Positions 12,953 through 38,069 are shown, counted from the stretch's first letter. The stretch: DNA of 64,000 nucleotides from Chloroflexota bacterium (GCA_009840575.1 VXNO01000017.1:7497-71496); one strand, 5' to 3'. Numbers and translations are program-made. Notes: a model not told the origin generated them from the sequence alone.

Positions 12953-12965
12953 CGTTGGCGCTCCA

Positions 12966-14612
12966 TTATTTGCCCAGCTTCTCCGCATAAACATAATAGG
13001 TGCCGCGTTCACGACCGCCAGCCGCATCAGTCAGCCAAGTCTGCAGCTTGACTTCGCCAATCGGCAAATCCAGCCGAAAGGCCACTGCCGTATCGCCAAC
13101 CAAAACAGGCTTTTCGATTGTCTTTTCGCCCACTTGCAGACGCGCGGTTGAGGCTTGCATGGCGCGATCCGCTTCGCGTGGATGCGCCCGCAATTCGATG
13201 CGATAGCTGCCCGCCCGCGAGATATCGACCAGCCACCAGCCATTAGAATCGTAGGCAGGGTCGTCTAGCGCAGCTTGCAGCCAAGGGACTCTGCCCGAGG
13301 TGGGATGCCAGTCACGCGCCGAAAGCAGCACGGGGTTTTCGTGCCGCGTGCCAACCGGGACCGCTATTGTGCTGGCGAACACGTTTTGCAGGCTTTGCCA
13401 CCAAGCTTCGTAGTCACTGCGCAGATCTGCGACGATCTGTGTATGCGCCGCCGCCACATCGCGCTGTTGCGCCGGGTCGCTGCCGATATCGGTTAATTCG
13501 CTGCCGTTGATCAGCCGCCATCTCTCGTTCAGCACAACGCAATGATGCCACTTCTGCGGCGTATCCGGCTGCAACTGTAGGACCAAGGACCGATGCGGCA
13601 AATTGCAATCCGCGCCGAGCAGCAGATTCTTCAGGCTGATGCCGTCAAAAGGCCTGTCGCTTTCTAAACCACACAGGTCAAGCAAGGTCGGCAGCACATC
13701 GATATGGGCCGTCGGCCCTGGCAATTTGCGCCCGGCTGGAATAGTTCCCTGCCAGCGCCAGAAGCAGTTGACACGATGTCCGCCTTCGTAGACTGAGCCT
13801 TTTATACCGCGCATGCCCGCGTTGTAACCGCTATTCGCCGCGGCGTCCCAGCCAGCTGCCGTGCCATGGTCGGAGGTAAAGAGGACAATTGTGTTTTCGT
13901 CCAGCTCCAGCGCATGCAGATGCTCCAGCAACCGTCCCATATTCTCGTCGAAGTTGGCGATCATGCCGTAGAAATTGGCGCGTTTTTCTGGCATCTCCAA
14001 TTCGCGGTAGGGCGCGGCATATCGCTGCGGCGCGATGAAAGGCGAGTGCATGGCATTGGTGGACAGGTAAACAAAGAAGGGCTGGTGGCTGTGGCGGGAG
14101 ATAAAGTCCTGCGCGGCCGCAAAGAAAACATCCGTGCAATAGCCGGCGCATTGCATGGGCGAGCCATCCCGAAAATAGACATCGTCAAAATAGTTGTTTC
14201 CCCAATAATCGGGCAGCTCGCCCACGCCGCCGCCACGATGGCAGAGCGTTTCGTCAAAGCCGCGATAGTGCGGAGCAAAAGGATAATTGTCGCCCAGGTG
14301 CCACTTGCCGAACATGCCAGTGCGATAGCCACTATTGGCGAAACACTCGGCCGCGGTCACAGCGTCTGGATGCAGCAGGTGCCGGCCTTGGATGACATGC
14401 CAGACACCGTTGCGCGCCGCGTATTGTCCCGTCAGCAGCGCAGCGCGCGATGGCGAACACAGCGGGTCGTGGTGATGATCGTCCAACTGGGCGCTTTGGC
14501 TGGCTAAGCGGTCGAGGTGGGGTGTATTGAGGTGGGGATTGCCGTGGCAGCCGATATCGCCGTAGCCTTGGTCATCGGTGATGACGAAGACGACATTGGG
14601 CGCTTTAGGCAT
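12966..14612 (-). CDS. S1-family sulfatase (formylglycine-dependent), no signal peptide
   Basis: ..VVFVITDDQGYGD.. and the formylglycine motif ..LCSPSRAALLTGQ.. The N-terminus MPKAPNVVFV.. starts directly at the catalytic domain. Confidence 0.9.
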   Translation of the reverse strand: MPKAPNVVFVITDDQGYGDIGCHGNPHLNTPHLDRLASQSAQLDDHHHDPLCSPSRAALLTGQYAARNGVWHVIQGRHLLHPDAVTAAECFANSGYRTGMFGKWHLGDNYPFAPHYRGFDETLCHRGGGVGELPDYWGNNYFDDVYFRDGSPMQCAGYCTDVFFAAAQDFISRHSHQPFFVYLSTNAMHSPFIAPQRYAAPYRELEMPEKRANFYGMIANFDENMGRLLEHLHALELDENTIVLFTSDHGTAAGWDAAANSGYNAGMRGIKGSVYEGGHRVNCFWRWQGTIPAGRKLPGPTAHIDVLPTLLDLCGLESDRPFDGISLKNLLLGADCNLPHRSLVLQLQPDTPQKWHHCVVLNERWRLINGSELTDIGSDPAQQRDVAAAHTQIVADLRSDYEAWWQSLQNVFASTIAVPVGTRHENPVLLSARDWHPTSGRVPWLQAALDDPAYDSNGWWLVDISRAGSYRIELRAHPREADRAMQASTARLQVGEKTIEKPVLVGDTAVAFRLDLPIGEVKLQTWLTDAAGGRERGTYYVYAEKLGK

Positions 14613-15732
14613 CGTGCCCGTCTTTGCCTGTGGGCAACCCTTCGCGTTCCCAGCGGATGATGAAATCCCAAGGCTCGTCTATTTGGCTCAGCCCCAGCGG
14701 GTCGCGCCCCTGCCAGGCCAGGTGGGCGCTGTAGGTCGTCACATGGCTCAGCCCCCAACTCAAGCCGGACAAAGGCTCGCTGTTGTCGCTGGCTGGCACC
14801 CGCAGCGCGCCAGTGGCTTGGGGCGGCGCGATGATGGTCGACATCGGCTGGAAGTTGATGCCGTCTTGCGCGAACTGGATGGTATTTTTCTCGGGACCGC
14901 AGCGAGTCAGCAGCGCGCCCACGCCGCCCGCGTACTCCCAGACCATGACCTCGTGCCCGCTGTTGGTGATGGGGTTGAAGGGCGACTTGATATACGGGCC
15001 CAGCGCGTCATCAGCGTGCGCCACCCCCCACTTGCTTTCCATATTGCTGTGGCCGATGCCCTCGCCCTTGAAATAGAGCCAATAACGCCCCTCGCGGAAG
15101 AGCAGCGCCGGGTCGTGCACGCGCAGGCTGTCGAAGCTGCCGATGACTGTCGCCGCTTCGGGATGCGCCCGCTCATCGACTTCGCCGGATGGGTCAGGCT
15201 CGACGACCGGCGCGGGGCTTTTTGTCCAGGGTCCATGCGGCGAATCCGCCCAGGCGATAGCGATTGATTCAGGCGTGCAGCGATACGAAGGCGCGGTCGT
15301 TACCTGATAGACAAGGTAATAGCGACCGTCATGCGCCAGCACATCGGGGGTGAAGACGCTGCGTTCGTCATAGCTGCCGGCGGGACCGCGCGTAACAGCG
15401 GGGCCCTGCTCTTGCCAGTTGTGCCCATCGCGAGAGGTGGCATACCAAACATCGCACAAATCCCAGGCGACGGCAGGGATAGTCTCGCTGGCATGATCAT
15501 GTCCAACCGGGACGCAAGGGTGCGCGCCGCGCGTATACCAGACGAAGTATGTGCCATCGACCTGGATGATGCAGCTGGGGTCGCGCCGCACGATACCGCC
15601 TTCATAGCCCAGCCCCGAAACCAACTGGTAGCGAAAGCGCGTGAACCAGGGATTGTGGCGGTCGGGCTGATACCGCGCTGTGGCTGCGCTGACTGGCATG
15701 GGCGCGCCTCCAGAAGAGGAAATGGGAGCCAA
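14605..15732 (-). CDS. GH117-like glycoside hydrolase (alpha-1,3-(3,6-anhydro)-L-galactosidase family)
   Basis: Motifs shared with characterised GH117 enzymes: RRDPS, YFVWYT, WDLCDVWYATSRDG, VFTPDVL, YYLVYQ, VHDP, WLYFKGE, NPITNSGHEV, GPEKNTIQFAQDGINF, WGLSH. Its stop overlaps the sulfatase start by 8 nt. Confidence 0.8.
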   Translation of the reverse strand: MAPISSSGGAPMPVSAATARYQPDRHNPWFTRFRYQLVSGLGYEGGIVRRDPSCIIQVDGTYFVWYTRGAHPCVPVGHDHASETIPAVAWDLCDVWYATSRDGHNWQEQGPAVTRGPAGSYDERSVFTPDVLAHDGRYYLVYQVTTAPSYRCTPESIAIAWADSPHGPWTKSPAPVVEPDPSGEVDERAHPEAATVIGSFDSLRVHDPALLFREGRYWLYFKGEGIGHSNMESKWGVAHADDALGPYIKSPFNPITNSGHEVMVWEYAGGVGALLTRCGPEKNTIQFAQDGINFQPMSTIIAPPQATGALRVPASDNSEPLSGLSWGLSHVTTYSAHLAWQGRDPLGLSQIDEPWDFIIRWEREGLPTGKDGHDA

Positions 15733-15773: not shown

Positions 15774-17786
15774 CTAGTTGCTACCGCCTTCGAAGTACCA
15801 TTGTTCGGGCAAGAACAAGACCCACTGGCGGTAAGTCCAGCTCCATTGTCCAGTCGTGTCATTGGGCGGGGTGTTCTTCAAGTTCTTCTTGAAGAGCAAG
15901 GGTTGTGGCGGTCGTTGGATTGTACCAATCTGATACAAACCGCCCATCGACATGTTATAGAACTCCTTGCCCAGCGCCAGCCATTCATCAGACCCATAGG
16001 CAGAATCGAGGAATGCCTCGCCGGTTGCCCACAAATCTTTAATCTCCTGCGGCGGCTCTTCGCCTGCTTCGCCATCGGATTGCATCCATTGACGCCACAA
16101 GTGTCCTGAAGCGCGCGCGCCCCAATGCGGACGCATATTCGCCAGACTATTGGCTACCTCGCCGATATCCAACATATCGGTGCCCCAGGCTGCCATATCC
16201 ACCCCGTTGCTATCGCGCAATTCACGATACAAGCCGATTTCAATGAGCTTGTATTGTGTCTTTACGCCGACTTCGTTCCAGTAATCGGCGATCAGCTCGC
16301 CGATCCTGCGCCATGAATCTTCGGGCACAGACACCTGGAAGTTGATAAATAGCGTTTCGCCATCGGGACGCAGTCGGAAACCATCGCTATCTCGCTGGTC
16401 CAAACCCATTTCATCCAGAAGCTGGTTCGCCAGGTCAGGGTCATATTGCGCGTAATGACCGGGCATCCAATCTTCATAGAAGAGCGAAGTGGGAACAGGC
16501 GCATTCTGCGAAGCATTGGCTAAGCCGAAGTAAATAAGCTCGTTGATCTCTTCGCGGTTGATCGCCACCGACATAGCCTGGCGGAAGCGCATATCCCAGA
16601 AGATATCGCGCAAGGGCAGGTTTTCGGTCGTGAAATTGAACATGATCGAATACTCATTGCCACGGCTGTATTCAGCAGTCGCCGTGCGGTATCCGCCAGC
16701 TTCTTCATTTTCACGGTAGGTGGGATAGCTCAACAACGTGCCCCAGCCGTAATGCGAGTACTCTCCAGCAAGCGCTTTGAGGTCTTGGATTTGCAGATCT
16801 TCCACCAGGATGCGACGCAAGGTATCCGTATAGGGCAGTTGGTTGCCGGCTGGATCCACTTTGAAGAAGTAGGGATTGCGCACATAATGCTTGTTGCCCA
16901 AGCTGTCTTCGCTTTCGAAGACGAAGGTGTTGAGGGTTGGCGCGTAGGCATCCGTCTCCGAGCCCAGGTTCCAGGTGAAGTTGTAGGGGCTCATCTTGGC
17001 GTTGAACATCTGCACCCAGCCCTCAAAGCCGTTTTCTTCAGCCAGCGCGTTGGCATCCGGGTTGTAATCGAGATGAAACTGCTTGAAGTAATGCGCCGGG
17101 CGGAAACCACGATTGCCGACCTCGCTGCCCAGCGCAATCATCAACGTGGGGCGAGCCTTGGCATAGGTATAGCGCACCGTAGTCGCATCGATAATCTCAA
17201 ACTGCGGCAACTCGCCATCAACAGCCCAGGGACCGCCAGGCGATGGCGTGATGTCGCTATTGCCCAAGATGTCTTCTATGTAGAAGCGGAAGTCTTCGGC
17301 AGTGAATGGTTCGCCATCTGACCAGCGATGACCTTCGCGCAGGTGAAAAGTGAAGACCGTTTGGTCTTCGGAAACTTCAAAGTCACGGGCGACGTTAGGG
17401 ATGATTGTGGCCAGGTCAGTATCGATAGTGAAGAGTTTCTGCAAGCGCATCTCCAGCACATCCCATCCGCAGCAGACGGGGTTGGTTGAAGGACCAGCCA
17501 GCTCGCCGCCATATTCGCCGATTTGTTCCAGCGGCTGGACGACGGCTGGCTGCGCGGGCAAGCGCTCTTCGACAGGCGGCAGCTCACCCGCGGCGACCAT
17601 CTCCGCCAGCATCGGCGCTTCGCCCCACATGTCGATGCTGTTGCCGGTGGCGGCGCTGTAGGCATCCAGGTCGGCATACTGGAATGGATAGACCAACTGC
17701 CCCTCGTGCATGGCTTGCCCAAAAACGGCAGCCGGCAGCAAGACCAATGCCAGGATCGTTAGCAGTACAAATTGATTTCGCTTCAT
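15774..17786 (-). CDS. Family-5 (Opp/Dpp-type) ABC substrate-binding protein, probable oligosaccharide binder
   Basis: Start at MKRNQFVLLTILALVLLPAAVFG (ATG 17786), preceded by GAGGAG. It has a signal peptide. The large SBP_bac_5-like body and locus context argue for a sugar rather than peptide ligand. Confidence 0.8.
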   Translation of the reverse strand: MKRNQFVLLTILALVLLPAAVFGQAMHEGQLVYPFQYADLDAYSAATGNSIDMWGEAPMLAEMVAAGELPPVEERLPAQPAVVQPLEQIGEYGGELAGPSTNPVCCGWDVLEMRLQKLFTIDTDLATIIPNVARDFEVSEDQTVFTFHLREGHRWSDGEPFTAEDFRFYIEDILGNSDITPSPGGPWAVDGELPQFEIIDATTVRYTYAKARPTLMIALGSEVGNRGFRPAHYFKQFHLDYNPDANALAEENGFEGWVQMFNAKMSPYNFTWNLGSETDAYAPTLNTFVFESEDSLGNKHYVRNPYFFKVDPAGNQLPYTDTLRRILVEDLQIQDLKALAGEYSHYGWGTLLSYPTYRENEEAGGYRTATAEYSRGNEYSIMFNFTTENLPLRDIFWDMRFRQAMSVAINREEINELIYFGLANASQNAPVPTSLFYEDWMPGHYAQYDPDLANQLLDEMGLDQRDSDGFRLRPDGETLFINFQVSVPEDSWRRIGELIADYWNEVGVKTQYKLIEIGLYRELRDSNGVDMAAWGTDMLDIGEVANSLANMRPHWGARASGHLWRQWMQSDGEAGEEPPQEIKDLWATGEAFLDSAYGSDEWLALGKEFYNMSMGGLYQIGTIQRPPQPLLFKKNLKNTPPNDTTGQWSWTYRQWVLFLPEQWYFEGGSN

Positions 17787-17847
17787 GTTTATGCTCCTCT
17801 CAAAGCGTTGCACAGCAATGTTTACTCGGAAAATTGGCTACCGTCAT

Positions 17848-18975
17848 TTAGCCTCCTTTCACCTCGAACTCACGCAGTTTGTCCCACTCAAATTGCACAC
17901 CGTGGCCTGGCTCATCGCCGGCGCGCATGATGCCGTCTTTCAATTGCGGCGGATTCTTGATGAAGCGCTCCAAGCCGAAGCTGTGCACTTCCAGGAGCGA
18001 CGGATTGGGGATAGCCGCCAACAACTGCAAGTGCAGCTCATGCACGCCGTGCGAGGTTACGGGCAGGTTGTGCGCATAAGCCAGCCGCGCCACGCGCAGC
18101 CAGTTGGTGATGCCGCCAATGTTGGATACATCCGGCTCGGCAAAGGCGATGCCGGCCTCCAGCGTGTGGCGGAATTCGTAGATGGTGCGCAGGTTTTCAC
18201 CCGCGGCAATGGGCAAGCCGCCTTCGCGGGCGATGCGCCTCAAGCCGGCATAATCGTCGGGGATGGTCGGCTCTTCCAGCCAGTAGACATCGTAGTCGCG
18301 GAAGCTGCGTGCCGCGCGGATGGCTTGCTCGGTCGTCCAGCGCATATTGGCATCGACCATCAGCGGCAGGTCGGGACCCAAAAAGTCGCGCACTGCCCGC
18401 AGCCGGGCGATATCTTCGGACAGCTTGTCGCGCCCCACTTTGATTTTGATGGCGCGGAAGCCGGCTGCGAGGTTGCAGCGCATCTGCTCAACGAGTTCGT
18501 CTGGCCCCAGCTGCAAATCAATGCCGCCGGCATAAGCGCGCGCCTGCCCGGAGTAACCGCCCAGCAGCTTCCACAGCGGCTGCCCCTGGCTGCGCGCCAG
18601 CAGATCCCACAAGGCGGTATCGACCGCCGACATGGCGAAAGCGACCAGCCCGCCCCGTCCGACATAATGCAGGCAGCGCCACATGCGCTCCCAGATCTGC
18701 TCGATACGGCTGGCGTCCGCGCCCAGCAGCAGCGTCTTGATGTCGCGCTGGATCAAGGAGCGGATGGCCGCCCCGCCCCGCCCAATCGTATAGGTATAGC
18801 CGATGCCGCTGCGCCCGCAGTCGCTCTCCAGGCACACAGCCACGACTTCAAACTCAGTATGCACGCCATGGGTGGCATCGGTCATGGGATGACTGAGCGG
18901 CAATACAAAGTGCCGCGTTTCGATGCCAGCAATACGCAGTGGCGCGTTCATCGAAGAATTTGCAGAAGCTAACAT
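17848..18975 (-). CDS. Enolase-superfamily (mandelate racemase/muconate lactonising) enzyme, candidate 3,6-anhydrogalactonate cycloisomerase
   Basis: ..FRAIKIKVGRD.. (KxK), ..LMVDANMRW.., ..YWLEEP.., ..AAGENL.. metal-ligand motifs. Start taken at MLASANSS.. (18975), alternative at 18951. The ORF-track start at 19092 would run through the promoter region. Confidence 0.8.
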   Translation of the reverse strand: MLASANSSMNAPLRIAGIETRHFVLPLSHPMTDATHGVHTEFEVVAVCLESDCGRSGIGYTYTIGRGGAAIRSLIQRDIKTLLLGADASRIEQIWERMWRCLHYVGRGGLVAFAMSAVDTALWDLLARSQGQPLWKLLGGYSGQARAYAGGIDLQLGPDELVEQMRCNLAAGFRAIKIKVGRDKLSEDIARLRAVRDFLGPDLPLMVDANMRWTTEQAIRAARSFRDYDVYWLEEPTIPDDYAGLRRIAREGGLPIAAGENLRTIYEFRHTLEAGIAFAEPDVSNIGGITNWLRVARLAYAHNLPVTSHGVHELHLQLLAAIPNPSLLEVHSFGLERFIKNPPQLKDGIMRAGDEPGHGVQFEWDKLREFEVKGG

Positions 18976-18981
18976 AACAAA

Positions 18982-19049
18982 GTGATAATCGATTACTGAC
19001 AAATTGTCAAGTGTACATTGTTGACAATCTGCAATCTCGCCGCTACAAT
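18982..19049. promoter_or_regulatory. Back-to-back divergent consensus promoters with operator palindromes
   Basis: Plus strand: TTGACA (19021-19026), 17 nt, TACAAT (19044-19049). Minus strand: TTGACA (complement of 19005-19010), 17 nt, TATCAC (complement of 18982-18987). Palindromes TGACAA-A-TTGTCA (18997-19009) and ATTGTTGACAAT (19017-19028) overlap the two -35 boxes. Confidence 0.65.
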
Positions 19050-19105
19050 GCGAGCATGGTTCATCGGAAAAATATGATAGCAGCAGAGGCAAAGGTCACA
19101 GGCGC

Positions 19106-20101
19106 ATGAGGAATTATGTGCTGCAGCGGCTGGTCTATATGGTCTTTTTGCTGTGGCTGGTGACAGTCGTCACATTCATCGTGATTCAGTTGCCGCCTGG
19201 AGACTACCTCTCGACGTATATCAGCCGCCTGGAACAAGCCGGGGAAGACCTCACTGACGAAGAAGTCGCTGCGCTGCGTGAACAATATGGGCTGAATCTG
19301 CCCGTGTATGCGCGCTACTTCAAGTGGTTTGGACAAGTGCTTCAAGGCAATCTCGGCTTTTCCTACGACTGGGAGAAGCCAGTGCGAGATTTGATTGGAG
19401 AACGGCTCGCGCTGACGTTTTCGATTGCTATATTGTCAGCTATCTTCACTTATGCGGTCGCCATCCCTATAGGCATTTATTCCGCGGTGCATCAGTATTC
19501 CATCGGCGATTACATATTTTCTTTCATCGGCTTCATCGGCATGTCCATCCCCAATTTTATGCTGGCGCTGATCTTGCTGTATGTCGCTTGGTCGGAATAT
19601 GGACAAAATTTAACCGGTCTGTTCTCGCAGGAGTTTCAAGGCGCGCCTTGGAGTTGGGAGAAGCTGATTGATATGGCCAAGCACCTGCCCATTCCTATCA
19701 TTGTGATTGGCACGGGCGGGACAGCCGGCTTAATCCGCGTGATGCGCGGCACGCTTTTGGACGAGCTGAACAAGCAGTATGTCATCACCGCGCGCAGCAA
19801 AGGCTTGGGCGAAGTCAAGCTGCTCTTCAAATATCCCGTGCGCGTGGCGCTCAACCCCATCATCAGCAGCCTGGCTTGGCTCTTCCCCAGCTTGATTTCC
19901 GGCGGCACCATCACCGCCTATGTGCTGGGCTTGCCCACGGCGGGCCCCATGCTGTTGCGCTCTCTGTTGACGCAAGACACTTTTTTGACCGCGAGTTTGC
20001 TGATGTTCGTCACGATTTTGACTGTCATCGGCACGACGGTTTCCGATATTTTGCTGGTCGTGGTTGACCCGCGCATCCGCATGGAACGCGCGGCAAGCTA
20101 G
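19106..20101 (+). CDS. Opp/Dpp-type ABC transporter permease (DppB-like)
   Basis: 331 aa with N-terminus MRNYVLQRLVYMVFLLWLVTVVTFIVIQLPPGDY typical of DppB/OppB. EAA-like region ..YVITARSKGL.. Confidence 0.9.
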   Translation: MRNYVLQRLVYMVFLLWLVTVVTFIVIQLPPGDYLSTYISRLEQAGEDLTDEEVAALREQYGLNLPVYARYFKWFGQVLQGNLGFSYDWEKPVRDLIGERLALTFSIAILSAIFTYAVAIPIGIYSAVHQYSIGDYIFSFIGFIGMSIPNFMLALILLYVAWSEYGQNLTGLFSQEFQGAPWSWEKLIDMAKHLPIPIIVIGTGGTAGLIRVMRGTLLDELNKQYVITARSKGLGEVKLLFKYPVRVALNPIISSLAWLFPSLISGGTITAYVLGLPTAGPMLLRSLLTQDTFLTASLLMFVTILTVIGTTVSDILLVVVDPRIRMERAAS

Positions 20102-20113
20102 GCGGAGCGGAAA

Positions 20114-21259
20114 ATGTTGCGGCGAATCAGCAGCCGGCGCAAGGCAGCCAAAGCGCAAGCCCCCGCCTTTGACGAGAGCTATTATCTCGCCTCGCAGTGG
20201 CAGTTGATCTGGCGCAAGTTTCGCCGCCACCGGCTGGCTATCGGCTCGCTGCTTGTCATTATCGCGCTTTATTCCATGGCCCTCTTCTCCGAGTTTTATG
20301 CCATCAACGACTACCAAAAACGCCATGTCAGTTTCGCCAAGGCACCGCCGCATACTATCTATTTTGTGGACGAAGCCGGCGATTTCAGCCTGCGTCCCTT
20401 CATCTATCAGATGAAGCAGACCCTGGATATGGACACCTTGCAGCGCAATTATTCCGAAGTGCGCGATACAAAGTACCCGATACGCTTCTTTGTGCGCGGC
20501 GAGCCTTACAAGATACTGGGCTTGATAGACAGCGACATCCACTTGATGGGCGTAGAAGCGCCGGGCGTCTTCTTTCCTTTTGGCACGGATGATCTGGGGC
20601 GCGATGTATTCTCCCGCACCATGCACGCGGCGCGCATCTCGCTGTCGATTGGTTTCCTGGGCGTCATCATCAGCTTTGTGCTGGGCTGCCTCTTCGGCGG
20701 GATTTCCGGTTATTTTGGCGGCGTGGTCGACCTGGTGATTCAGCGGCTGATCGAGTTTCTGATTTCCATCCCGTCTATCCCGCTGATTATCGCGCTGGCA
20801 GCGGCGCTGCCACCGGAATGGAGCTCAACCCAGGTGTATTTTGGCATCACCATCGTGTTGGCGACAGTCGGCTGGACGACGCTGGCGCGGGCGGTGCGCG
20901 GCAAATTGCTGGAACTGCGCGAGGCGGATTTTGTCATGGCGGCGCGCATCTCCAATATGGGCGACATGGATATCATCATCAAGCACCTGCTGCCATCCTT
21001 CGCCAGCTTTCTGATCGTCGTGCTGAGCCTGTCCGTGCCGGGCATGATCCTTGCTGAGACGGCGCTGAGCTTCTTGCAGATTGGCATTCGTCCGCCCGCC
21101 GTCAGCTGGGGCGTGCTGCTGCAAGACGCGCAGAATATCCGCAGCCTCAGCCAAAGCCCCTGGCTCTTGATCCCCGGCTTGTTTGTCATCGTCACTGTGC
21201 TGGCCTTTAATTTCTTGGGCGATGGCTTGCGGGATGCCGCCGACCCCTACAAACAATAA
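20114..21259 (+). CDS. Opp/Dpp-type ABC transporter permease (DppC-like)
   Basis: 381 aa. ..FPFGTDDLGRDVFSR.. and ..DFVMAARISNMG.. motifs are typical of DppC/OppC. Confidence 0.9.
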   Translation: MLRRISSRRKAAKAQAPAFDESYYLASQWQLIWRKFRRHRLAIGSLLVIIALYSMALFSEFYAINDYQKRHVSFAKAPPHTIYFVDEAGDFSLRPFIYQMKQTLDMDTLQRNYSEVRDTKYPIRFFVRGEPYKILGLIDSDIHLMGVEAPGVFFPFGTDDLGRDVFSRTMHAARISLSIGFLGVIISFVLGCLFGGISGYFGGVVDLVIQRLIEFLISIPSIPLIIALAAALPPEWSSTQVYFGITIVLATVGWTTLARAVRGKLLELREADFVMAARISNMGDMDIIIKHLLPSFASFLIVVLSLSVPGMILAETALSFLQIGIRPPAVSWGVLLQDAQNIRSLSQSPWLLIPGLFVIVTVLAFNFLGDGLRDAADPYKQ

Positions 21260-21313: not shown

Positions 21314-21922
21314 ATGACCACAATCGAAATCTATCGCACCTTGCCCGAACAGATCGCCGCGCGCTTGCGCCAAGAGGTGCTATCCAACAAACTCAAACCG
21401 GGCGACCCCCTGCGCGAAGCCGATCTATCGCAGCGCTTCGGGGTCAGCCGTGGACCGGTGCGCGAGGCTTTCCGGCAGCTCACGCAGCAGGGCTTGCTGG
21501 TGCTGGAGCCAAACAAAGGCGCGCGCGTCGCCCAAAACCCCAGCGTCGAGGTGCGCCCACTGGTCGTGCAGCTGCGCCGCGCCATCGAAACTTTCGTGCT
21601 GGACAGCATCTTCGCTCGCATCACCGAGACCGATATAGCGCGCTGGGAAGCTATCCTAGCGGATATTCAGGCGGCTTGCCTGAACAACGATGTCGACGCG
21701 CTGACGGACAGCGACCTGCGCTTCCATCAAGCCATTATCCAGAGCCACGATGACAAAGACATCTTCACGTTGTGGCAGCCCATCGCCATGCGCATGATGA
21801 TGCAATATACGCGCCACGGCGACATCATGGAGAGCTACCGCGAGCACAAGCGCATCCTGGATGCCATCCGCAGCGGCGACAAGCTGGGCGCAATCGACGC
21901 CTTGTATGCCAATATCCAGTAA
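21314..21922 (+). CDS. GntR-family transcriptional regulator, FadR-type (FCD C-terminal domain)
   Basis: N-terminal winged HTH ..LKPGDPLREADLSQRFGVSRGPVREAFRQLTQQGLLVLEPNKGARV.. The helical C-terminal domain carries a His-containing FCD-like pattern. Confidence 0.85.
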   Translation: MTTIEIYRTLPEQIAARLRQEVLSNKLKPGDPLREADLSQRFGVSRGPVREAFRQLTQQGLLVLEPNKGARVAQNPSVEVRPLVVQLRRAIETFVLDSIFARITETDIARWEAILADIQAACLNNDVDALTDSDLRFHQAIIQSHDDKDIFTLWQPIAMRMMMQYTRHGDIMESYREHKRILDAIRSGDKLGAIDALYANIQ

Positions 21923-21952
21923 ATTGACCGGACGCCACAAAAGGAACAAATT

Positions 21953-22972
21953 ATGGCAGTCGCAGCCTATTACGAAGGGGAGCGCCGCATCCGCCAGGGG
22001 CAATGCCTGCCGCGCCCGCCGTCCGCCGGCGAAGTACAGTTGCGCGTTTCGCATTGTGGCATCTGTGGCACTGACCTGCACATATTTCACGGCGCGATGG
22101 ATGCGCGCGTACAGATGCCGCTGGTGATGGGCCACGAAATGTCGGGCACAGTCCACGCAGCCGGCGCGGATGTCGAAGGCTTCACGCCGGGCGATCGGGT
22201 GGTTGTGATGCCACTGGAACCCTGTCATAACTGCCCTGCCTGCGCAGCCGGGCACAGCCACATCTGCCACAACCTGAACTTCCTGGGCATCGATACGCCG
22301 GGCGCATTCCAGAGTTACTGGACGGTGCCCGCCTTTTCGCTGCATCGCGTGCCGGCTTCGCTCTCGCTGCGACATGGCGCGCTGATTGAGCCGCTGGCGG
22401 TGGCTTGCCATGATGTGCGGCTGGCCGATGTGCGGGCGGGCGACCAGGTGGTTGTGTTGGGCGGCGGACCCATCGGCATGTTGGTGGCGCTGGTGGCGCG
22501 GCAGGCGGGCGCGGATGTACTCATCTCTGAGATCAACCCCTATCGCGTCGACCTGGCGCGGCGACTGAGCTTCGCGGCGCTCAATCCACGCGATGATGAC
22601 TTGCTGGCGACTGTGCTGCGGCGCACGGGTGGCGCGGGCGCGGACATCGTCTTTGAAGTCTCTGGCTCACAGGCGGGCGCGTCTGTGATGAGCGAATTGC
22701 TGCGCACACGCGGATTGGCGGTGGTGGTCGCGATCTTCGCCCAGCCGCCCAAGCTGGATTTGTTCCGCTTCTTTTGGCGCGAGCTGCGTTTGCAGGGTGC
22801 GCGCGTTTATGAGAGCCAGGACTTCGCCGCCGCCATCGAGTTGGCTGCTGACGGCGGGCTGCCCTTGGACGAACTAATCACCGATGTCCGCCCCTTGAGC
22901 GCGTTGCAAGCCGGCTTTGAAGATATGGAAAAAGGCGGGCGCTTCATGAAGATTCTCTTGGAGGTGCCATGA
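21953..22972 (+). CDS. Zn-dependent medium-chain alcohol dehydrogenase (sorbitol/threonine-DH-like), candidate 2-keto-3-deoxy-L-galactonate 5-dehydrogenase
   Basis: ..HCGICGTDLH.., ..GHEMSG.., structural-Zn Cys cluster ..CHNCPACAAGHSHIC.., Rossmann ..VLGGGPIG.. The specific substrate is inferred from context only. Confidence 0.8.
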   Translation: MAVAAYYEGERRIRQGQCLPRPPSAGEVQLRVSHCGICGTDLHIFHGAMDARVQMPLVMGHEMSGTVHAAGADVEGFTPGDRVVVMPLEPCHNCPACAAGHSHICHNLNFLGIDTPGAFQSYWTVPAFSLHRVPASLSLRHGALIEPLAVACHDVRLADVRAGDQVVVLGGGPIGMLVALVARQAGADVLISEINPYRVDLARRLSFAALNPRDDDLLATVLRRTGGAGADIVFEVSGSQAGASVMSELLRTRGLAVVVAIFAQPPKLDLFRFFWRELRLQGARVYESQDFAAAIELAADGGLPLDELITDVRPLSALQAGFEDMEKGGRFMKILLEVP

Positions 22973-23739
22973 CTGTACTCGATTCTTTTCGGCTGGACGG
23001 CAAGACGGCGCTGGTGACCGGGGCGCGGCGCGGCATTGGCTTCGCCATGGCCAGCGCTTTAGCAGAAGCCGGCGCGGATATCATCGCCGTTAGCGCCAGC
23101 CTGGAAAACAGCGGCAGCGCGATAGAAGCGGCTGTCTCCGCGCAGGGGCGGCGCTTCGCTGGCTATCGCTGTGATTTTTCGAGGCGGGCTGAACTGAAAG
23201 ATTTCATCACGCAAGTAAGCAGCGAACACCCGGTCATCGATATTTTGGTCAACAATGCGGGGGCGGTCCTGCGCGAGCCGGCTACCTCGCATAGCGATGC
23301 CTATTGGGATCGCATCATCGAAATCAACCTGAACGCGCAGTTCGTTCTCAGCCGTGAGCTTGGTGCCCGCATGTTAGAGCGCGGCAGTGGCAAGATCATC
23401 TTCACCGCTTCGCTGCTGACATTTCAAGGTGGCATCACAGTGCCTGGTTATGCAGCCAGCAAAGGCGGCATCGGACAACTGACCAAAGCGCTGGCGAATG
23501 AATGGGCGGGCGGCGGCGTGCAGGTCAATGCCATCGCGCCCGGCTATGTGCGCACCGATGTAACCGAAGCCCTGCAAAATAACCCCGACCGGTACCGCGC
23601 CATCCTGGAGCGCATCCCGGCGGGGCGCTGGGGGCATATCGACGATTTCAAGGGCCCGGTCGTCTTCCTGGCTTCGGCGGCGTCGGATTATGTCAACGGC
23701 GAAATCCTGGTGGTCGACGGCGGCTGGATGGGTCGCTGA
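22969..23739 (+). CDS. Short-chain dehydrogenase/reductase, KduD-like
   Basis: ATGA overlap with the preceding gene. TGARRGIG cofactor motif, YAASKGG (YxxxK) catalytic motif, overall KduD-like N-terminus ..LDGKTALVTGA.. Confidence 0.85.
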   Translation: MTVLDSFRLDGKTALVTGARRGIGFAMASALAEAGADIIAVSASLENSGSAIEAAVSAQGRRFAGYRCDFSRRAELKDFITQVSSEHPVIDILVNNAGAVLREPATSHSDAYWDRIIEINLNAQFVLSRELGARMLERGSGKIIFTASLLTFQGGITVPGYAASKGGIGQLTKALANEWAGGGVQVNAIAPGYVRTDVTEALQNNPDRYRAILERIPAGRWGHIDDFKGPVVFLASAASDYVNGEILVVDGGWMGR

Positions 23740-23744
23740 GCAAC

Positions 23745-24980
23745 TTAAACGCCGATGGTCGGCTTGTCAAAATCGGTTTGTTCCGCCAGGATGCGCTCGC
23801 GCCAGTCTTCGGGCAGGCGCGCCACCTTTTGGAAAAATGTCTCTTCGCCGAAGTGCAGGTTGCTGCGCTTGAATTCCGGGCGATGGCAATCGCGCGATAA
23901 ATCACAATCAAAGCGGATGATATGACAACCGCGGCGCGAGCCATCTCCAGGCGGCGTGATGTGGCTTAAGCCCCAGGTGATGCCGCGCCCGTCGCCATTG
24001 TCCGCGAAGGCATCCGGGCAGAAAGGACCCGGCGCGACCGGCGACAACTGCACATGCGCCATGGGCTGGAAGTTGAGCCCGTCCGCCGCAAATTGAATCG
24101 TGTCTTTTTCGGGTCCGTCCAGGATCAACAAAGTGGCGATGCCGCCTTTGTAGGTCCAATACATGGTCTCATGCCCGGAATTGGTGACCGGGTTCAGCTC
24201 AGACTTGACGAACGGGCCTTCGGGCTGCTCGGCGATGGCGACGCCCTGCGCCCGCAGCAAGCCACCTGAGACTTTCTCCACTGGCGAGCCTTTGTAATAA
24301 AGCCAGACCTTGCCCTTGTAGACCAGTGGATAGGGGTCGTGAATGGCGCAGCTATCCCATTCGCCTAGCTCACCCTGCGGCACAATCGGCACATCCATGC
24401 GCGTCCAGGGACCATCGGGCGAATCGGCATGCGCCATGCTGACTCCAACGCAATCATGCGCCCGCCACATGGTGGTGAAACACTGATAATACAAATAATA
24501 ACGTCCGCCCCAGACCAAAATATCCGGCGTGGAAAGCGAGCGGTCGCCATAAGTGCCTTTGGGCGCGCGCGGTACAGCAACCCCCTGCTCCACCCAGTCG
24601 AAGCCGTCTTTTGAGGTGGCGTAACAAATATCCGCCAAGTCCCAATCAACCACCGGGATTTCGTCAGTCGCCTGGTCGATATGGAAGCGCCCAACCGGCA
24701 CATGCTCGGTGATGCGCCGCGTATACCAGACATAATAGATATCGCCGATCTTAAGCACCTTGGACGGGTCGCGCCGCGAAACCGACATCTCCGAATGGTC
24801 TTTGCCGATGCCGCCCACCCGCGAATAACGAAAATTAGTGTAGAAGGGGTTGCCCGGGTCTTGCTTGGGCGTCCACATGTCGTAGACGCGCTCGGTCGCG
24901 GCGCTCAAGGGCCGGTCGGTCGGTTTAGTTTGCGGCAACATGCCGGGGAAGGCGCGCGGTTGTTGGCTGTCGTCGTTCAT
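23745..24980 (-). CDS. GH117-like glycoside hydrolase
   Basis: Start taken at MNDDSQQP.. (24980), preceded by AAGGAG. The ORF-track start is 25091. Motifs RRDPS, YYVWYT, WDLADICYATSKDG, STPDIL, YYLYYQ, IHDP, WLYYKG, NPVTNSGHET, GPEKDTIQFAADGLNF, WGLSH. Confidence 0.85.
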   Translation of the reverse strand: MNDDSQQPRAFPGMLPQTKPTDRPLSAATERVYDMWTPKQDPGNPFYTNFRYSRVGGIGKDHSEMSVSRRDPSKVLKIGDIYYVWYTRRITEHVPVGRFHIDQATDEIPVVDWDLADICYATSKDGFDWVEQGVAVPRAPKGTYGDRSLSTPDILVWGGRYYLYYQCFTTMWRAHDCVGVSMAHADSPDGPWTRMDVPIVPQGELGEWDSCAIHDPYPLVYKGKVWLYYKGSPVEKVSGGLLRAQGVAIAEQPEGPFVKSELNPVTNSGHETMYWTYKGGIATLLILDGPEKDTIQFAADGLNFQPMAHVQLSPVAPGPFCPDAFADNGDGRGITWGLSHITPPGDGSRRGCHIIRFDCDLSRDCHRPEFKRSNLHFGEETFFQKVARLPEDWRERILAEQTDFDKPTIGV

Positions 24981-25982: not shown

Positions 25983-26093
25983 GAAAGCTCCTTCTAGTAT
26001 GCAGTGGACTTCGCAACTAGGCTGAACATGAGCGGGATGCGCTGGAACAAGCGCCAGGCCCGAATGATATGCGCATAACTTGACACTGGTAAA

Positions 26094-26115
26094 GTCAATT
26101 ATAGACAATCGACAA
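26094..26115. promoter_or_regulatory. Operator-like 22-mer GTCAATTATAGACAATCGACAA upstream of the GMC oxidoreductase/GH117-fusion operon
   Basis: 21 of 22 positions match 25059-25080. A TTGACA box lies at 26080-26085 just upstream. Confidence 0.6.
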
Positions 26116-26129
26116 ATCTGGGTCAAGCA

Positions 26130-27764
26130 ATGGCGCAAAATGCCGGCTATGCTTGGTGGCTGTCGGCTGGAGGAGAGCACACGGTGATACGCGAGGCGGA
26201 CTACATCATCATCGGCGCTGGCTCGGCTGGGGCAGCGGTTGCGGCGCGCCTAAGCGAAGACCCGCGCGCGACTGTGCTGCTGTTGGAAGCTGGCGGACCA
26301 GACAGCGACCCGACCATCCATGTGCCGGCGCGTTTTTCCGAACTTTTCCACAGCGATATCGACTGGGATTATGAAACTGTGCCTCAGCCGGGCTTGAATG
26401 GGCGGCGGGAATATGTACCGCGCGGAAAAGTGTATGGCGGCACCAGCTCCATGAACGCCATGGTTTATCAGCGCGGGCATCCTTCTGATTATGATGGCTG
26501 GGCGGAGGCGGGCAACCAAGGCTGGGCATACCAGGATCTGCTGCCTTGGTTCAAGAAGATGCAGCATCAGGAGCGCGGTGAATCGTGGCATCACGGCAGC
26601 GGCGGGCCAATCAACGTGGCTGACCTGCAAGACCCGAATCCATTGAGTCGGGCTTTTGTGGCTGGCGCGCTAGAGCTAGGATATGCGCCGCGCGAAGATT
26701 TCAACGCGGGACAGCAAGAAGGTTTTGGGCTATACCAGGTTACGCAGAAGCGCGGACAGCGGCACAGCAGCGCGGTCGGATACTTGCGACCAGCTTTGCA
26801 GCGCCCGAACTTCACCGCCCTGCCCTATGCTCATGCCACTCGCTTGTGTATTGAGGGCAAACGGTGCCAGGCGGTCGAGTTCTGGTGCCAGGGCGAGCGC
26901 AAAACAGCCTATGCCAGAAGGGAAGTCATCGTCTGTGGCGGCGCGATCAACTCGCCACAACTGCTGCTGCTTTCGGGCATAGGCGCGGCCGCGCAGCTTT
27001 CCAAGCACGGCATCCCAGTCGTAGTAGACCTACCTGGCGTTGGGCTGGGCTTGACCGATCATATGCAAGTGCCAGTCGCTTATCATTGCACTGCGCCAAT
27101 CAGCCTAGCCGGCAAAGACACCGCCGAGCAATTGCGGCTATATGAAGCAGGGCGCAGAGGCTTGCTGACATCAAACCTGGGCGAGGCGGGTGGATTTGTA
27201 CGGCTCGACTCGCGTTCACCAGCGCCCGAGCTGCAATATCATTTCGGGCCTGATTGGTTCATTCGGCACGGATTCGATCCGCCGCCGGGGCACGGCTTCA
27301 CTATTTTGGCTGGTTTGGTCGGCACAAAGAGCGCTGGCAAATTGGAGCTGGCATCGGCAGATCCCTTCGCTGCGCCCTTGATCGACTTTGCCTGCCTGAG
27401 CCACCCTGAGGATGTGCGCGTCCTGCTGGCGGGGGTCAAGTTGGCGCGGCGCATCGCCCAAAGCAGCGCATTTGATGCCTACCGCGGCGAAGAGTTCTTG
27501 CCCGGCGCGCAGCTAAGGGATGACGCGGAGTTGACCCGCTTCATCCGCAAGTTCGCCACCACGATCTATCATCCCGCCTGCAGCTGCAAGATGGGCAAAG
27601 ACCGACTGGCGGTGGTGGACGAACGACTTCGTCTACATGGAATTGAAGGACTGCGCGTGGCTGACGCTTCAATTATGCCGCGCATCGTCAACGCCAACAC
27701 CAATGCGCCCTGCATTATGATCGGCGAAAAAGCGGCGGACATGATCCGCGAGGACAATAGATAA
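26130..27764 (+). CDS. GMC-family FAD oxidoreductase (choline/glucose dehydrogenase-like)
   Basis: ..DYIIIGAGSAGAAVAARLSED.. FAD-binding fold, ..GGTSSMNAMVYQRG.. GMC signature, C-terminal ..YHPACSCKMG.. active-site His region. The true start may be slightly downstream. Confidence 0.9.
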   Translation: MAQNAGYAWWLSAGGEHTVIREADYIIIGAGSAGAAVAARLSEDPRATVLLLEAGGPDSDPTIHVPARFSELFHSDIDWDYETVPQPGLNGRREYVPRGKVYGGTSSMNAMVYQRGHPSDYDGWAEAGNQGWAYQDLLPWFKKMQHQERGESWHHGSGGPINVADLQDPNPLSRAFVAGALELGYAPREDFNAGQQEGFGLYQVTQKRGQRHSSAVGYLRPALQRPNFTALPYAHATRLCIEGKRCQAVEFWCQGERKTAYARREVIVCGGAINSPQLLLLSGIGAAAQLSKHGIPVVVDLPGVGLGLTDHMQVPVAYHCTAPISLAGKDTAEQLRLYEAGRRGLLTSNLGEAGGFVRLDSRSPAPELQYHFGPDWFIRHGFDPPPGHGFTILAGLVGTKSAGKLELASADPFAAPLIDFACLSHPEDVRVLLAGVKLARRIAQSSAFDAYRGEEFLPGAQLRDDAELTRFIRKFATTIYHPACSCKMGKDRLAVVDERLRLHGIEGLRVADASIMPRIVNANTNAPCIMIGEKAADMIREDNR

Positions 27765-30241
27765 TGACAGCCTCACAACACAAGCCGCGCCTGCCTGGCG
27801 AGCCAAGCGTGAATAAACCCAAGGATCGTCAGCTTAGCGCCGCAACGCGCCGTCTGTACGACAAGTGGGGACGGTATCAAGATTCCACCAGCGAGTTCTA
27901 TACGACATTCAAATACAGCCGCCTCACAGGAATCGGCAAGCAAGCCGGCATCACCCGCCGCGACCCGACCACTGTGCTTCGAATAGACGGCACCTATTTC
28001 GTCTGGTACACGCGCCGCCAAACAGAAAATGACCGCGACATCCGCAACAAGCCTCCTCATCAACAGCAGACCTGGCATACACCTGTCTACGATTGGGACC
28101 TGGCGGAGATATGGTACGCCACATCGCAAGATGGCTTTCATTGGCAAGAGCGCGGCGTGGCCATCAGGCGCGGACCGAAAGATGCTTACGATGGCCGTTC
28201 GGTCTTCACACCCGATGTCCTGATGACTAAGCAGGGCTACTATCTGTATTATCAAGCTGTCGATTATCCCTATTGCACGCGCACGCGCAACAGCATCGGC
28301 ATGTCATTCGCAAGCTCGCCGCATGGGCCTTGGCAGCGCGTCGAAAGACCAGTGTTGCGACCCGGCGCGGCAGGCGAATGGCTAAACGATGATGACTCGG
28401 ACGAAGTCATCCGCTATGGTGATTGGGACAGCCACAAAGTGCATGACCCTTTCATCCTGGCGCGGGATGGTCGCTACTGGCTATATTACAAAGGACAGCC
28501 CATGGGTTGGACGACCCGCTATTCTCGCGGCATCGGCTGGGGTGTCGCAATCGCCGACCAGCCCGATGGACCTTTCGTGAAATCGCCACTCAATCCCCTC
28601 ACCAACAGCGGGCATGAGACTTGTCTGTTCCCGTATGGCGAAGGCTTGTTAGCGATTTGCGGACACGATGGCCCCGAGAAAGACACTATCCAATATGCAG
28701 CTGATGGGCTGAACTTCGAAGTAGTTGCGCATGTCACGCTGCCCCCGCCAGCTGGAGGGCCTTTCGCGCCAGATTCCTATGCGGACACAGCTGATGGCAG
28801 CGGCATCACCTGGGGGCTCGCGCATATCGCCACTGAAGAGCTGAAGCGCGGCAACTCCTATCTCATTCGTTTTGATTGCAACTTGCGCCCTGGGCTCGAG
28901 CGACCCGGTTTTCGCGGCACGAATATCCGCTTCCCCGAATCAGTCTATTTTTCGCCGGATATCGCGCTGAACGAAGACAACAAACAACCTTTGCGCTATG
29001 CAAGCAAGCCAGAGCCGCCGCCGCGGGCCCCGCTACTTGAAACCCTGAGCCGGGCATCTCAACGCGTGTACAAGACTTTTGGGCAGTACAAAGACCAAGG
29101 CAGTGAGTTCTTCTCGGCATTTAAATATTCGTCAATCAGCGGACTGGGAAAAGAGCTGGGCTGCACGCGGCGCGACCCATCCAAGGTCATCCGCGTCGGC
29201 GAAAAGTATTTTGTCTGGTATACACGCCGCAAAACCGCACAGACCTGGCGCGGCACCCAGCAAGCCAGCAGTACGCGCCCAGCCTGGGCCTGGGACATGG
29301 CGGATATCTGGTACGCTGAATCACCAGATGGATTCCATTGGCGGGAATGCGGACCCGCTGTGCTTCGTGGCGCGCCGGGCAGCTTTGACGACCGCTCGGT
29401 ATTCACTCCCGATATCTTGATACATGGTGGCAAATTCTATCTATACTACCAAGTATCACAGGGTATATGGACTCAGCGGGCGCGCCACCTGATCGGCATG
29501 GCTTGGGCGGAATCCCCATATGGTCCCTGGACGAAGCTCGACCAGCCGGTATTGCAGCCCGGCCTGGCTGGCGAGATTGTTGGCGCGGATGATGATGCCG
29601 ATGCAATCGGCAGCTTCGGCGAATGGGACTCGCACAAATTGCATGATCCCTTTGTCTTGCGCTACCGCGGGCAGATTTGGCTGTATTACAAAGGTGTGCA
29701 ATACGGGCGGACATATCGTCATGATCTGGGCATCGGCTGGGGCGTGGCTATGGCGGATGACCCGCGAGGACCCTTTGTCAAGTCGTCTTTGAACCCGATC
29801 ACCAACAGTGGCCACGAGACCTTTCTCTATCCTTTCCGCAAAGGCATAGTCGCTATCACCAGCCACGAAGGCCCCGAGAAGAATACAGTCCAATACGCAA
29901 GCGATGGGCTAAACTTCCAAGTAGTCGGCAAAGTATCTGTGCCGCCCGTTGCGGCTGGCCCCTATGTGCCCGATGCTTTCACCGACAGCCAAGACGGACG
30001 CGGCATCAGTTGGGGCTTGTCACACATCCACCACGATGATGCAGGGCCGCTCGCGGATTCTTACTTGGTACGTTTCGACTGCAACCTCAGTCGAGACGAG
30101 CAGCGCGCCGACTTTTACCGCGCCTGGAATTACCGCTTTCCTGAATCAGCCTATTTCAGCCAGGGATTTGCGCTGACACCACAAATGAAAAGCGAAGCGC
30201 TGCAGCTCATGCAAGCGATAGACACAGATACGATTGTCTGA
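27764..30241 (+). CDS. Tandem GH117-GH117 fusion protein (two complete GH117-like domains)
   Basis: 825 aa; start overlaps the GMC stop (TAATG). Each half has the full motif set: RRDPT/RRDPS, YFVWYTRR, WD(L/M)A(E/D)IWYA, VFTPD(V/I)L, YYLYYQ, SHK(V/L)HDPF, WLYYKG, NP(L/I)TNSGHET, GPEK(D/N)T(I/V)QYA(A/S)DGLNF, WGL(A/S)HI, (L/V)(I/V)RFDCNL. The Pro-rich linker ..ASKPEPPPRAP.. lies at about 29000-29035. Confidence 0.85.
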   Translation: MTASQHKPRLPGEPSVNKPKDRQLSAATRRLYDKWGRYQDSTSEFYTTFKYSRLTGIGKQAGITRRDPTTVLRIDGTYFVWYTRRQTENDRDIRNKPPHQQQTWHTPVYDWDLAEIWYATSQDGFHWQERGVAIRRGPKDAYDGRSVFTPDVLMTKQGYYLYYQAVDYPYCTRTRNSIGMSFASSPHGPWQRVERPVLRPGAAGEWLNDDDSDEVIRYGDWDSHKVHDPFILARDGRYWLYYKGQPMGWTTRYSRGIGWGVAIADQPDGPFVKSPLNPLTNSGHETCLFPYGEGLLAICGHDGPEKDTIQYAADGLNFEVVAHVTLPPPAGGPFAPDSYADTADGSGITWGLAHIATEELKRGNSYLIRFDCNLRPGLERPGFRGTNIRFPESVYFSPDIALNEDNKQPLRYASKPEPPPRAPLLETLSRASQRVYKTFGQYKDQGSEFFSAFKYSSISGLGKELGCTRRDPSKVIRVGEKYFVWYTRRKTAQTWRGTQQASSTRPAWAWDMADIWYAESPDGFHWRECGPAVLRGAPGSFDDRSVFTPDILIHGGKFYLYYQVSQGIWTQRARHLIGMAWAESPYGPWTKLDQPVLQPGLAGEIVGADDDADAIGSFGEWDSHKLHDPFVLRYRGQIWLYYKGVQYGRTYRHDLGIGWGVAMADDPRGPFVKSSLNPITNSGHETFLYPFRKGIVAITSHEGPEKNTVQYASDGLNFQVVGKVSVPPVAAGPYVPDAFTDSQDGRGISWGLSHIHHDDAGPLADSYLVRFDCNLSRDEQRADFYRAWNYRFPESAYFSQGFALTPQMKSEALQLMQAIDTDTIV

Positions 30242-38068: not shown

Positions 38069-38069
38069 T

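Follow-up and report, generated by a model that had tools for sequence, protein, structure and literature searches.

Enzymes of glycoside hydrolase family 117 (GH117) perform the last, keystone step of agar saccharification. The neoagarobiose hydrolases SdNABH (3R4Y) and ZgAhgA (3P2N), which act at this end of agar breakdown in agarolytic Gammaproteobacteria and Bacteroidota, carry one unit per chain and form dimers with a swapped arm of helix-turn-helix (HTH) type at the N terminus. The clade-A enzymes BpGH117, or PpGH117, of Phocaeicola plebeius (4AK5-4AK7) and BuGH117B (5TA7) are exo-alpha-1,3-(3,6-anhydro)-L-galactosidases and non-covalent homodimers of a single unit of about 400 amino acids (aa); the non-clade-A proteins Zg3615 (4U6D) and Zg3597 (4U6B) of Zobellia galactanivorans are single-unit, too, and exported. 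In contrast to all of these, a gene on the plus strand of a 64,000-nucleotide stretch from a Chloroflexota bacterium (GCA_009840575.1, VXNO01000017.1:7497-71496; the whole stretch is called the window below) encodes two GH117 units within one chain. An ancestral GH117 gene has here been duplicated in tandem and fused head to tail.

Three properties of the known dimer bear on such a fusion. Its N-terminal arm is swapped and C-terminal elements contribute to the interface (PMC9728383), a geometry which makes a direct C-to-N fusion easy. The motif SxAxxR is described as mediating dimerisation (PMC13118177), and a histidine of the partner subunit (His392, situated in the C-terminal loop of BpGH117 and BuGH117B) completes the +1 subsite, such that the intact dimer is required (PMC5849685).

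Two GH117 units in one reading frame

The features of the gene, with coordinates on the window, are the following:

27764..30241, plus strand: tandem GH117-GH117 gene, 825 aa and stop, uninterrupted frame, two units by profile
27764..28993, plus strand: N unit (aa 1-410) with HTH arm, five-bladed propeller and RFDCNL C-terminal region
27836..27853, plus strand: N-unit SxAxxR motif (S25-A-A-T-R-R30; S25/A27/R30) in the HTH arm, helix 26-35 in the model
27956..27967, plus strand: N-unit RRDP motif (RRDPT, 65-69); D67 is the equivalent of Asp90, the general base in BpGH117
28604..28618, plus strand: N-unit NSGHE motif (281-285); H284 equals His302 and E285 equals Glu303; dyad residue D302 at 28667-28669
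28976..29047, plus strand: junction (aa 405-428, DNKQPLRYASKPEPPPRAPLLETL), homologous to the native Pro-rich leader; predicted local distance difference test (pLDDT) about 72
28994..30238, plus strand: C unit (aa 411-825) with HTH arm, propeller, RFDCNL region and an extra C-terminal helix 806-819
29048..29065, plus strand: C-unit SxAxxR motif (S429-R-A-S-Q-R434; S429/A431/R434) in the HTH arm, helix 430-439 in the model
29168..29179, plus strand: C-unit RRDP motif (RRDPS, 469-473) with D471
29804..29818, plus strand: C-unit NSGHE motif (681-685) with H684 and E685; dyad position E702 at 29867-29869

A hidden Markov model (HMM) of the unit, built from both halves and the two single-unit GH117 paralogues of the window, finds two full-length units in the 825-aa protein, at residues 1-414 and 411-822. 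Compared to all sequences in the PDB, the full-length protein has its best match to BpGH117 (4ak5) in the N half, with E=6.9e-87 over N-unit residues 15-357; the C unit by itself matches Zg3615 (4u6d), its best sequence match, with E=4.8e-83 and 4ak5 with E=3.8e-81. Clade-A chains as a group give E-values of 1e-81 to 1e-87, other GH117 chains match down to about 1e-80, and the remaining strong matches (3p2n, 3r4y, 5ta7, 4u6b) are all GH117, whereas GH43, the next family, reaches merely 1e-4 to 1e-6. Pfam and NCBIfam hold no GH117 model and yield only partial GH43 or GH32 matches for the tandem protein; the family assignment therefore rests on PDB sequences and fold. Both units exhibit every sequence and fold feature by which GH117 is recognized: the five-bladed propeller and the N-terminal HTH arm are shared with BpGH117 and BuGH117B, and the C-terminal 'RFDC[DN]L' region with Zg3615 and Zg3597.

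The two halves share 51.8% identity over 398 aa (E=4e-149); with the single-unit paralogues at 14605-15732(-) and 23745-24980(-), either half shares 44-48%. At the DNA level the identity between the halves is 65% over 656 nucleotides (nt), and the duplication is therefore old and no recent repeat. An earlier note on this DNA had described two complete and clearly diverged GH117 units in one 825-aa open reading frame (ORF), and both parts of that description agree with the profile, the PDB matches, the uninterrupted frame and the identity values. The N terminus of the protein is not hydrophobic (maximum hydropathy -0.74) and has no signal peptide, so that the protein is predicted to be cytoplasmic; Planctomycete-type tandem relatives have signal-peptide-like N termini.

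Concerning the junction, a Pro-rich linker had been noted at about 29000-29035. Its position and its richness in proline are correct (the sequence 'ASKPEPPPRAPLL' lies at about 28997-29035), but a separate linker it is not: the junction is homologous to the Pro-rich leader (…P..P..KP.DRPLSAA…) which precedes the arm in the N unit, in the paralogue at 23745 and in single-unit relatives. It is the second unit's own leader, with no inserted linker, and the C-terminal region of unit 1 continues directly into the native leader and HTH arm of unit 2. About 36 residues lie between RFPES, the last conserved C-terminal motif of unit 1, and SxAxxR of unit 2. A separately translated C unit was considered as well and is ruled out, since no Met occurs from residue 247 to 512. 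Across the tandem family, SxAxxR is found in 101 of 104 N units and in 96 of 104 C units; Planctomycete-type C units possess SxSxxR in its place.

The roles of the catalytic residues are taken from a quantum mechanics/molecular mechanics study of PpGH117 (PMC11574756), in which Asp90 is the general base, His302 the general acid in a dyad with Asp320, Lys260 stabilizes the glycosidic oxygen at the transition state, and Glu303, Asp245 and Glu167 are each needed for activity. The equivalents of Asp90, His302, Asp320, Glu303, Asp245, Glu167 and Lys260 (BpGH117 numbering) are D67, H284, D302, E285, D228, D151 and K243 in the N unit, and D471, H684, E702, E685, D628, D550 and K643 in the C unit. Thus, Asp90, Asp245, Lys260, His302 and Glu303 are present in both units, as in BpGH117 and BuGH117B, and Asp320 in the N unit; the Glu167 position is Asp in both units and the Asp320 position is Glu in the C unit, both changes being conservative. 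The motifs RRDP[ST], FTPD (148-151 and 547-550), HDP (227-229 and 627-629) and NSGHE, said earlier to be kept in both halves, were each located in each unit, and on alignment neither half lacks any member of the catalytic set. Judged by these residues, both active sites look competent.

The units differ in their rate of change, with a mean identity of 70.7% in N units versus 62.9% in C units. Among 78 Chloroflexi-type tandem proteins, 212 columns are at least 90% conserved in the N unit versus 179 in the C unit. Fourteen positions are conserved within each unit yet different between the units, and four of them lie at most 4 residues from a catalytic residue (Q245/V645, F289/Y689, C299/T699, D302/E702); Glu occupies the Asp320 dyad position in all Chloroflexi-type C units. 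These 14 substitutions indicate that the two sites are non-identical, and they are silent on substrate preference; different specificities of the two sites (e.g., for sulfated or methylated substrates) would be speculation.

Distribution, origins and decay of the fusion

The identical 825-aa protein is encoded on at least 24 contigs from separate assemblies, which include two NCBI metagenome-assembled genomes (MAGs), one ENA assembly and Logan assemblies of individual runs, and the gene neighbourhood is the same on all of them. The database search gave 261 relatives at E<=1e-20, and all of the 120 that are listed have the two-unit layout, those under about 750 aa ending at a contig edge. The fused frame is shared by more than 100 homologues, down to 39% identity and with complete chromosomes among them, and codon-position GC content runs steadily across the junction. 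It is hence scarcely credible that two neighbouring paralogous genes were joined by a sequencing or assembly error, or that the gene is a pseudogene; the 24 identical contigs, the two-unit homologues and the steady codon-position GC exclude a frameshift or assembly artefact, in line with what had been stated before.

In a scan of species-representative genomes, the best 80 loci match the query over nearly its full length, and they span Chloroflexota, Planctomycetota, Verrucomicrobiota and further phyla. Most of these are Anaerolineae, Aggregatilineales or Phototrophicaceae MAGs, and further labels are Spirochaetia, Phycisphaerales, Planctomycetaceae, Pirellulaceae, Fuerstiella, Verrucomicrobiales, Akkermansiaceae, Acidiferrobacteraceae, Armatimonadia and Bacteroides. 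Clustering at 50% places the tandem architecture in about three clusters and one distant case among 117 GH117-like clusters (E<=1e-30). Where the tandem proteins are named in public records, the usual name is 'family 43 glycosylhydrolase', in keeping with the lack of a GH117 model in both Pfam and NCBIfam; many public proteins of that name are actually double GH117s. The searched literature (which excludes subscription journals and the CAZy database, which may list such modularity) held no report of a tandem, bimodular or fused GH117, or of GH117 in sponges. The two-unit layout is thus widespread and apparently undescribed: the earlier impression of novelty stands insofar as no paper was found, but the architecture, present in many public MAG proteins, is neither rare nor confined to this window.

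Relatives of the tandem protein occur in bins named APA_bin and SB0661_bin, identified in a published study as sponge symbionts (of Aplysina aerophoba and Ircinia ramosa), and from these bins a sponge-symbiont origin of the window itself is likely.

Two groups of relatives deserve separate mention. The proteins P0114-P0117 (1407-1421 aa; Pirellulaceae MAGs) have a sulfatase (PF00884/PF16347) at the N terminus and continue with two GH117 units, at about 565-981 and 996-1411; such triple fusions would join desulfation and exo-glycosidase steps in one exported protein. Two Chloroflexi-type tandem genes (L063 and L065, 59-61% identity) are situated on chromosomes of 4.5-5 Mb labelled 'Spirochaetia bacterium'; either the module was transferred horizontally as a whole, or the MAG carries a wrong label. 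The contig of L065 is the same as that of locus L007, where importer, GntR and cycloisomerase-type neighbours are found.

The origin of the fusion was addressed by a neighbour-joining tree in which both kinds of unit were placed together with single-unit representatives (308 columns, Kimura distances, 200 bootstraps). In 165 of the 200 bootstraps, the N and C units of the Chloroflexi type fall into one clade, and in 197 those of the Planctomycete type fall into another, together with four single-unit proteins. Groupings of N with N or C with C across the two types appear in none (0/200), and a single ancient fusion common to both types is therefore rejected. P0147 (1346 aa), a distant GH117/GH43-like protein, has units at 519-832 and 820-1135, both without HTH arm, which are sister to each other in a point-estimate neighbour-joining tree (no bootstrap); this pair looks like a separate, independent duplication. 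Read most simply, the branching pattern suggests that the tandem fusion arose independently at least twice, probably three times, with gene conversion between the halves as the alternative.

Seven catalytic or essential positions were surveyed in 113 tandem proteins. All seven are intact in each of the 111 readable N units (two further N units end at a contig edge), and ten C units, still full-length, exhibit catalytic losses: the group P0081/84/87/88/89/90/96, P0110, P0121 and P0057, the last with the single change D245H. In P0081, P0084, P0087-P0090, P0096, P0110 and P0121, the His, Glu and Asp residues of the C unit are lost (e.g., K-H-E-D to R-R-A-A), with the fold and the SxAxxR arm kept, and these proteins are candidates for natural catalytic-plus-pseudoenzyme pairs. 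The ten altered C units probably represent about three events, so the asymmetry is suggestive and statistically not strong. For P0089, which has a dead C unit, AlphaFold2 predicts a compact two-propeller body (pLDDT 87.6, predicted template modelling score, pTM, 0.89). Conservation within the dead-C subclade (six sequences only) amounts to 76% in the N propeller, 58% in the C propeller and 67% in the C-unit arm, in which SxAxxR is kept; in a swapped dimer, this arm would pack on the active N unit.

A probable dimer within one chain

AlphaFold2, run on a 52-sequence alignment, gave a mean pLDDT of 93.9 and a pTM of 0.93 for the 825-aa chain, with 89-97 in both HTH arms and about 72 at the junction. 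By inference, such a pTM implies that the two propellers are placed in a defined manner relative to each other and are not freely hinged domains in the model. The top 18 Foldseek matches of the model are all GH117 chains (target template modelling score, TM, 0.80-0.88), the best structural match being 4u6d with TM 0.88.

We consider it probable, at roughly 0.65, that the gene product is a cytoplasmic pseudo-dimer in a single chain, belonging to GH117, the exo-alpha-1,3-(3,6-anhydro)-L-galactosidase family. The two propellers would then probably pack within one chain as the subunits do in the canonical GH117 homodimer. Once fused, the obligatory dimer would no longer depend on concentration and the halves would be free to diverge, with the N unit as the presumed strictly conserved catalytic core and the C unit evolving faster, carrying Glu at the position of the His/Asp dyad and, in some relatives, probably serving as a non-catalytic structural partner. 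The covalent GH117 dimer put forward in the earlier note fits every indirect test made (arms, junction, pTM, recurrent fusion, dead C units), and the packing between the units may equal the canonical interface.

Several points weigh against this reading. The best query-normalized TM in the Foldseek comparison, made chain by chain, is 0.41, as no solved single chain spans both propellers, and AlphaFold2 tends to dock homologous halves in the known homo-oligomeric mode, so that a high pTM is not independent proof. The clade-A partner residue His392 and its loop have no alignable equivalent in the tandem protein, whose C-terminal regions are of the Zg3597/Zg3615 type: for the last 85 residues of the N unit, only 4u6b and 4u6d can be aligned and no clade-A chains, and full-length alignments to 4ak5 end at about residue 376. 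The dimer is not universal in GH117 either, since the characterized enzyme Ahg943 of Gayadomonas joobiniege is monomeric (PMC9728383); the quaternary structure of the family is plastic, with the dimer lost in Ahg943, opposite to the tandem protein, in which it would be hard-wired. Gene conversion between the halves could mimic independent origins in the neighbour-joining tree of 308 columns. Concerning the substrate, GH117 also includes weak alpha-L-fucosidases, an alpha-L-galactosidase and a galactofuranosidase (2026 preprint); activities being this diverse, the substrate is deduced from the neighbouring genes only, and among these no aldehyde dehydrogenase domain of the type of the 3,6-anhydro-L-galactose (AHG) dehydrogenase was found in any window ORF scanned.

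Other arrangements have to be compared with the single-chain dimer. The complete dimerization arms in both units could equally serve pairing between chains, each unit acting as an independent module, like a bead on a string, that joins a unit of another chain, so that tandems would dimerize or form assemblies with open ends. All that the fusion did would then be to co-express two paralogous enzymes 1:1, and glycoside hydrolases with several catalytic modules are common. We regard this as unlikely, for the junction offers no free linker and retains a lower but moderate pLDDT, the pTM indicates one rigid body, and the maintenance of full-length dead C units is hard to explain for independent enzymes. 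It also appears doubtful that only one site is active, the C unit being mainly a structural or substrate-binding partner with little or no turnover, a pseudo-enzyme in the making. The faster evolution of C units, the Glu at the dyad position in every Chloroflexi-type C unit and the fact that all catalytic losses in the family fall in C units would agree with this; however, the residues D, D, D, K, H and E and the acidic dyad residue are kept in the C unit here and in 102 of 113 relatives, the exchange of Asp for Glu is conservative, and residues kept so strictly while the sequences diverged by about 50% imply that catalysis is under selection.

That the protein is a functional heterodimer, with sites differing in specificity, in an AHG-type route of sponge-associated Chloroflexota which uses a GMC flavoenzyme for the AHG dehydrogenase, is a tentative and rather improbable extension. 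One site could, for example, act on plain AHG and the other on a decorated or non-anhydro alpha-L-galactose or fucose-type residue. If this were true, one cytoplasmic protein would strip mixed red-algal-type or host-derived galactan oligosaccharides, and sponge holobionts would contain an unrecognized source of, or demand for, anhydro-galactose-type sugars.

As a single-chain version of an obligate dimer, which is probably what the tandem GH117 is, recurrent and, in some lineages, with one half turned into a pseudo-enzyme, the fusion is not categorically new: oligomeric enzymes that were duplicated internally and fused are well known. In the 100-kDa mammalian hexokinases, the whole catalytic unit is duplicated, the halves have diverged, and one half is inactive in some lineages with the fold kept. 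The likeness to the tandem GH117 is one of analogy only, fold and chemistry being unrelated. What the tandem family may offer is a captured path that leads from a homodimer through a fused heterodimer to a pair of catalytic unit and pseudoenzyme, with origins that appear independent and with intermediates still living. A fused chain would furthermore allow one active site to be mutated alone, which is impossible in a homodimer, and thus the contribution of each subunit to the partner site to be tested; it may also be a more stable, concentration-independent scaffold for AHG production. The finding corrects annotation and overturns nothing that specialists on carbohydrate-active enzymes believe.

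Gene neighbourhood and putative pathway

The putative AHG-type locus spans about 8.8 kb to 30.2 kb of the window and, apart from the tandem gene, consists of the following:

8780-10844, plus strand: Opp-type ABC ATPases
11162..13027, minus strand: 621-aa protein similar to the solved alpha-agarase 9m0b (E=3.6e-35, residues 44-621 versus chain 201-768)
12966..14612, minus strand: sulfatase
14605..15732, minus strand: second single-unit GH117 paralogue, 375 aa, more distant
15774..21259, both strands: Opp/Dpp-type ABC importer parts, i.e., family-5 solute-binding protein 15774-17813(-) and permeases 19106-20101(+) and 20114-21259(+)
17848..19092, minus strand: enolase-superfamily enzyme, close homologue of 3,6-anhydro-alpha-L-galactonate cycloisomerase
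21314..23739, plus strand: GntR/FCD regulator, Zn-dependent alcohol dehydrogenase and KduD-like short-chain dehydrogenase, the dehydrogenases at 21953-23739
23745..24980, minus strand: single-unit GH117 paralogue, 411 aa, of the same GH117 subclade as the tandem units; its counterpart is conserved in related loci
26130..27764, plus strand: GMC-family FAD (flavin adenine dinucleotide) oxidoreductase, whose TAA stop overlaps the ATG of the tandem GH117 gene by one base (TAATG)

The cycloisomerase-type gene sits inside the importer span and matches 5xd7 over its full length with E=1.3e-112 (5xd9 at about 1e-112), the next named family following at 3e-57. The 621-aa protein has no match in Pfam or NCBIfam and may represent a GH96-like enzyme of a Chloroflexota locus. 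At its 5' end, the ORF shares about 60 nt with the sulfatase gene, and its true start may lie further downstream.

Importer, divergent single GH117 and tandem gene recur together in the two related loci L006 and L007, both of which carry divergent tandem genes. In L007, a GntR regulator and a cycloisomerase-type enzyme are found in addition, and in L006 a GMC enzyme, which adjoins the tandem GH117, and a sulfatase.

Oligosaccharides would enter through the adjacent Opp-type ABC system, and the tandem enzyme would release AHG or a close analogue from them. The GMC oxidoreductase is probably co-translated with it and may oxidize the released sugar; as a candidate oxidase or dehydrogenase, we infer from its position, it could fill the step of the AHG dehydrogenase. 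The cycloisomerase homologue and two dehydrogenases might then process the oxidized sugar, the dehydrogenases at 21314-23739 being candidates for downstream sugar-acid steps. The oxidoreductases present in the locus are the GMC enzyme, the Zn-dependent alcohol dehydrogenase and the short-chain dehydrogenase. As far as gene content can tell, the neighbours support a cytoplasmic exo-release of AHG or a close analogue, followed by sugar-acid catabolism, and the context of the locus points to anhydro-galactose catabolism in sponge-associated Chloroflexota, where no discussion of an AHG-type pathway was found in the searchable literature.

Between the single GH117 and the GMC gene, a 254-aa ORF at 25416-26180(-) has no family match; on the identical contigs, gene callers instead predict two small genes in this interval, one of 68 and one of 188 aa. 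The part of the window from 31 to 64 kb is unrelated to the tandem GH117; encoded there are gyrase A, a sigma factor, ABC exporters and membrane proteins that resemble glycosyltransferases. At 31902-34379(+), 38025-40688(+) and 51106-61744(+), the genes code for very large membrane proteins that carry PMT/PMT_2 (glycosyltransferase-C-like) and DUF2298 domains, with ABC exporters between them. This run includes an ORF of 1968 aa and another of exactly 825 aa, a chance match in length that is unrelated to GH117.

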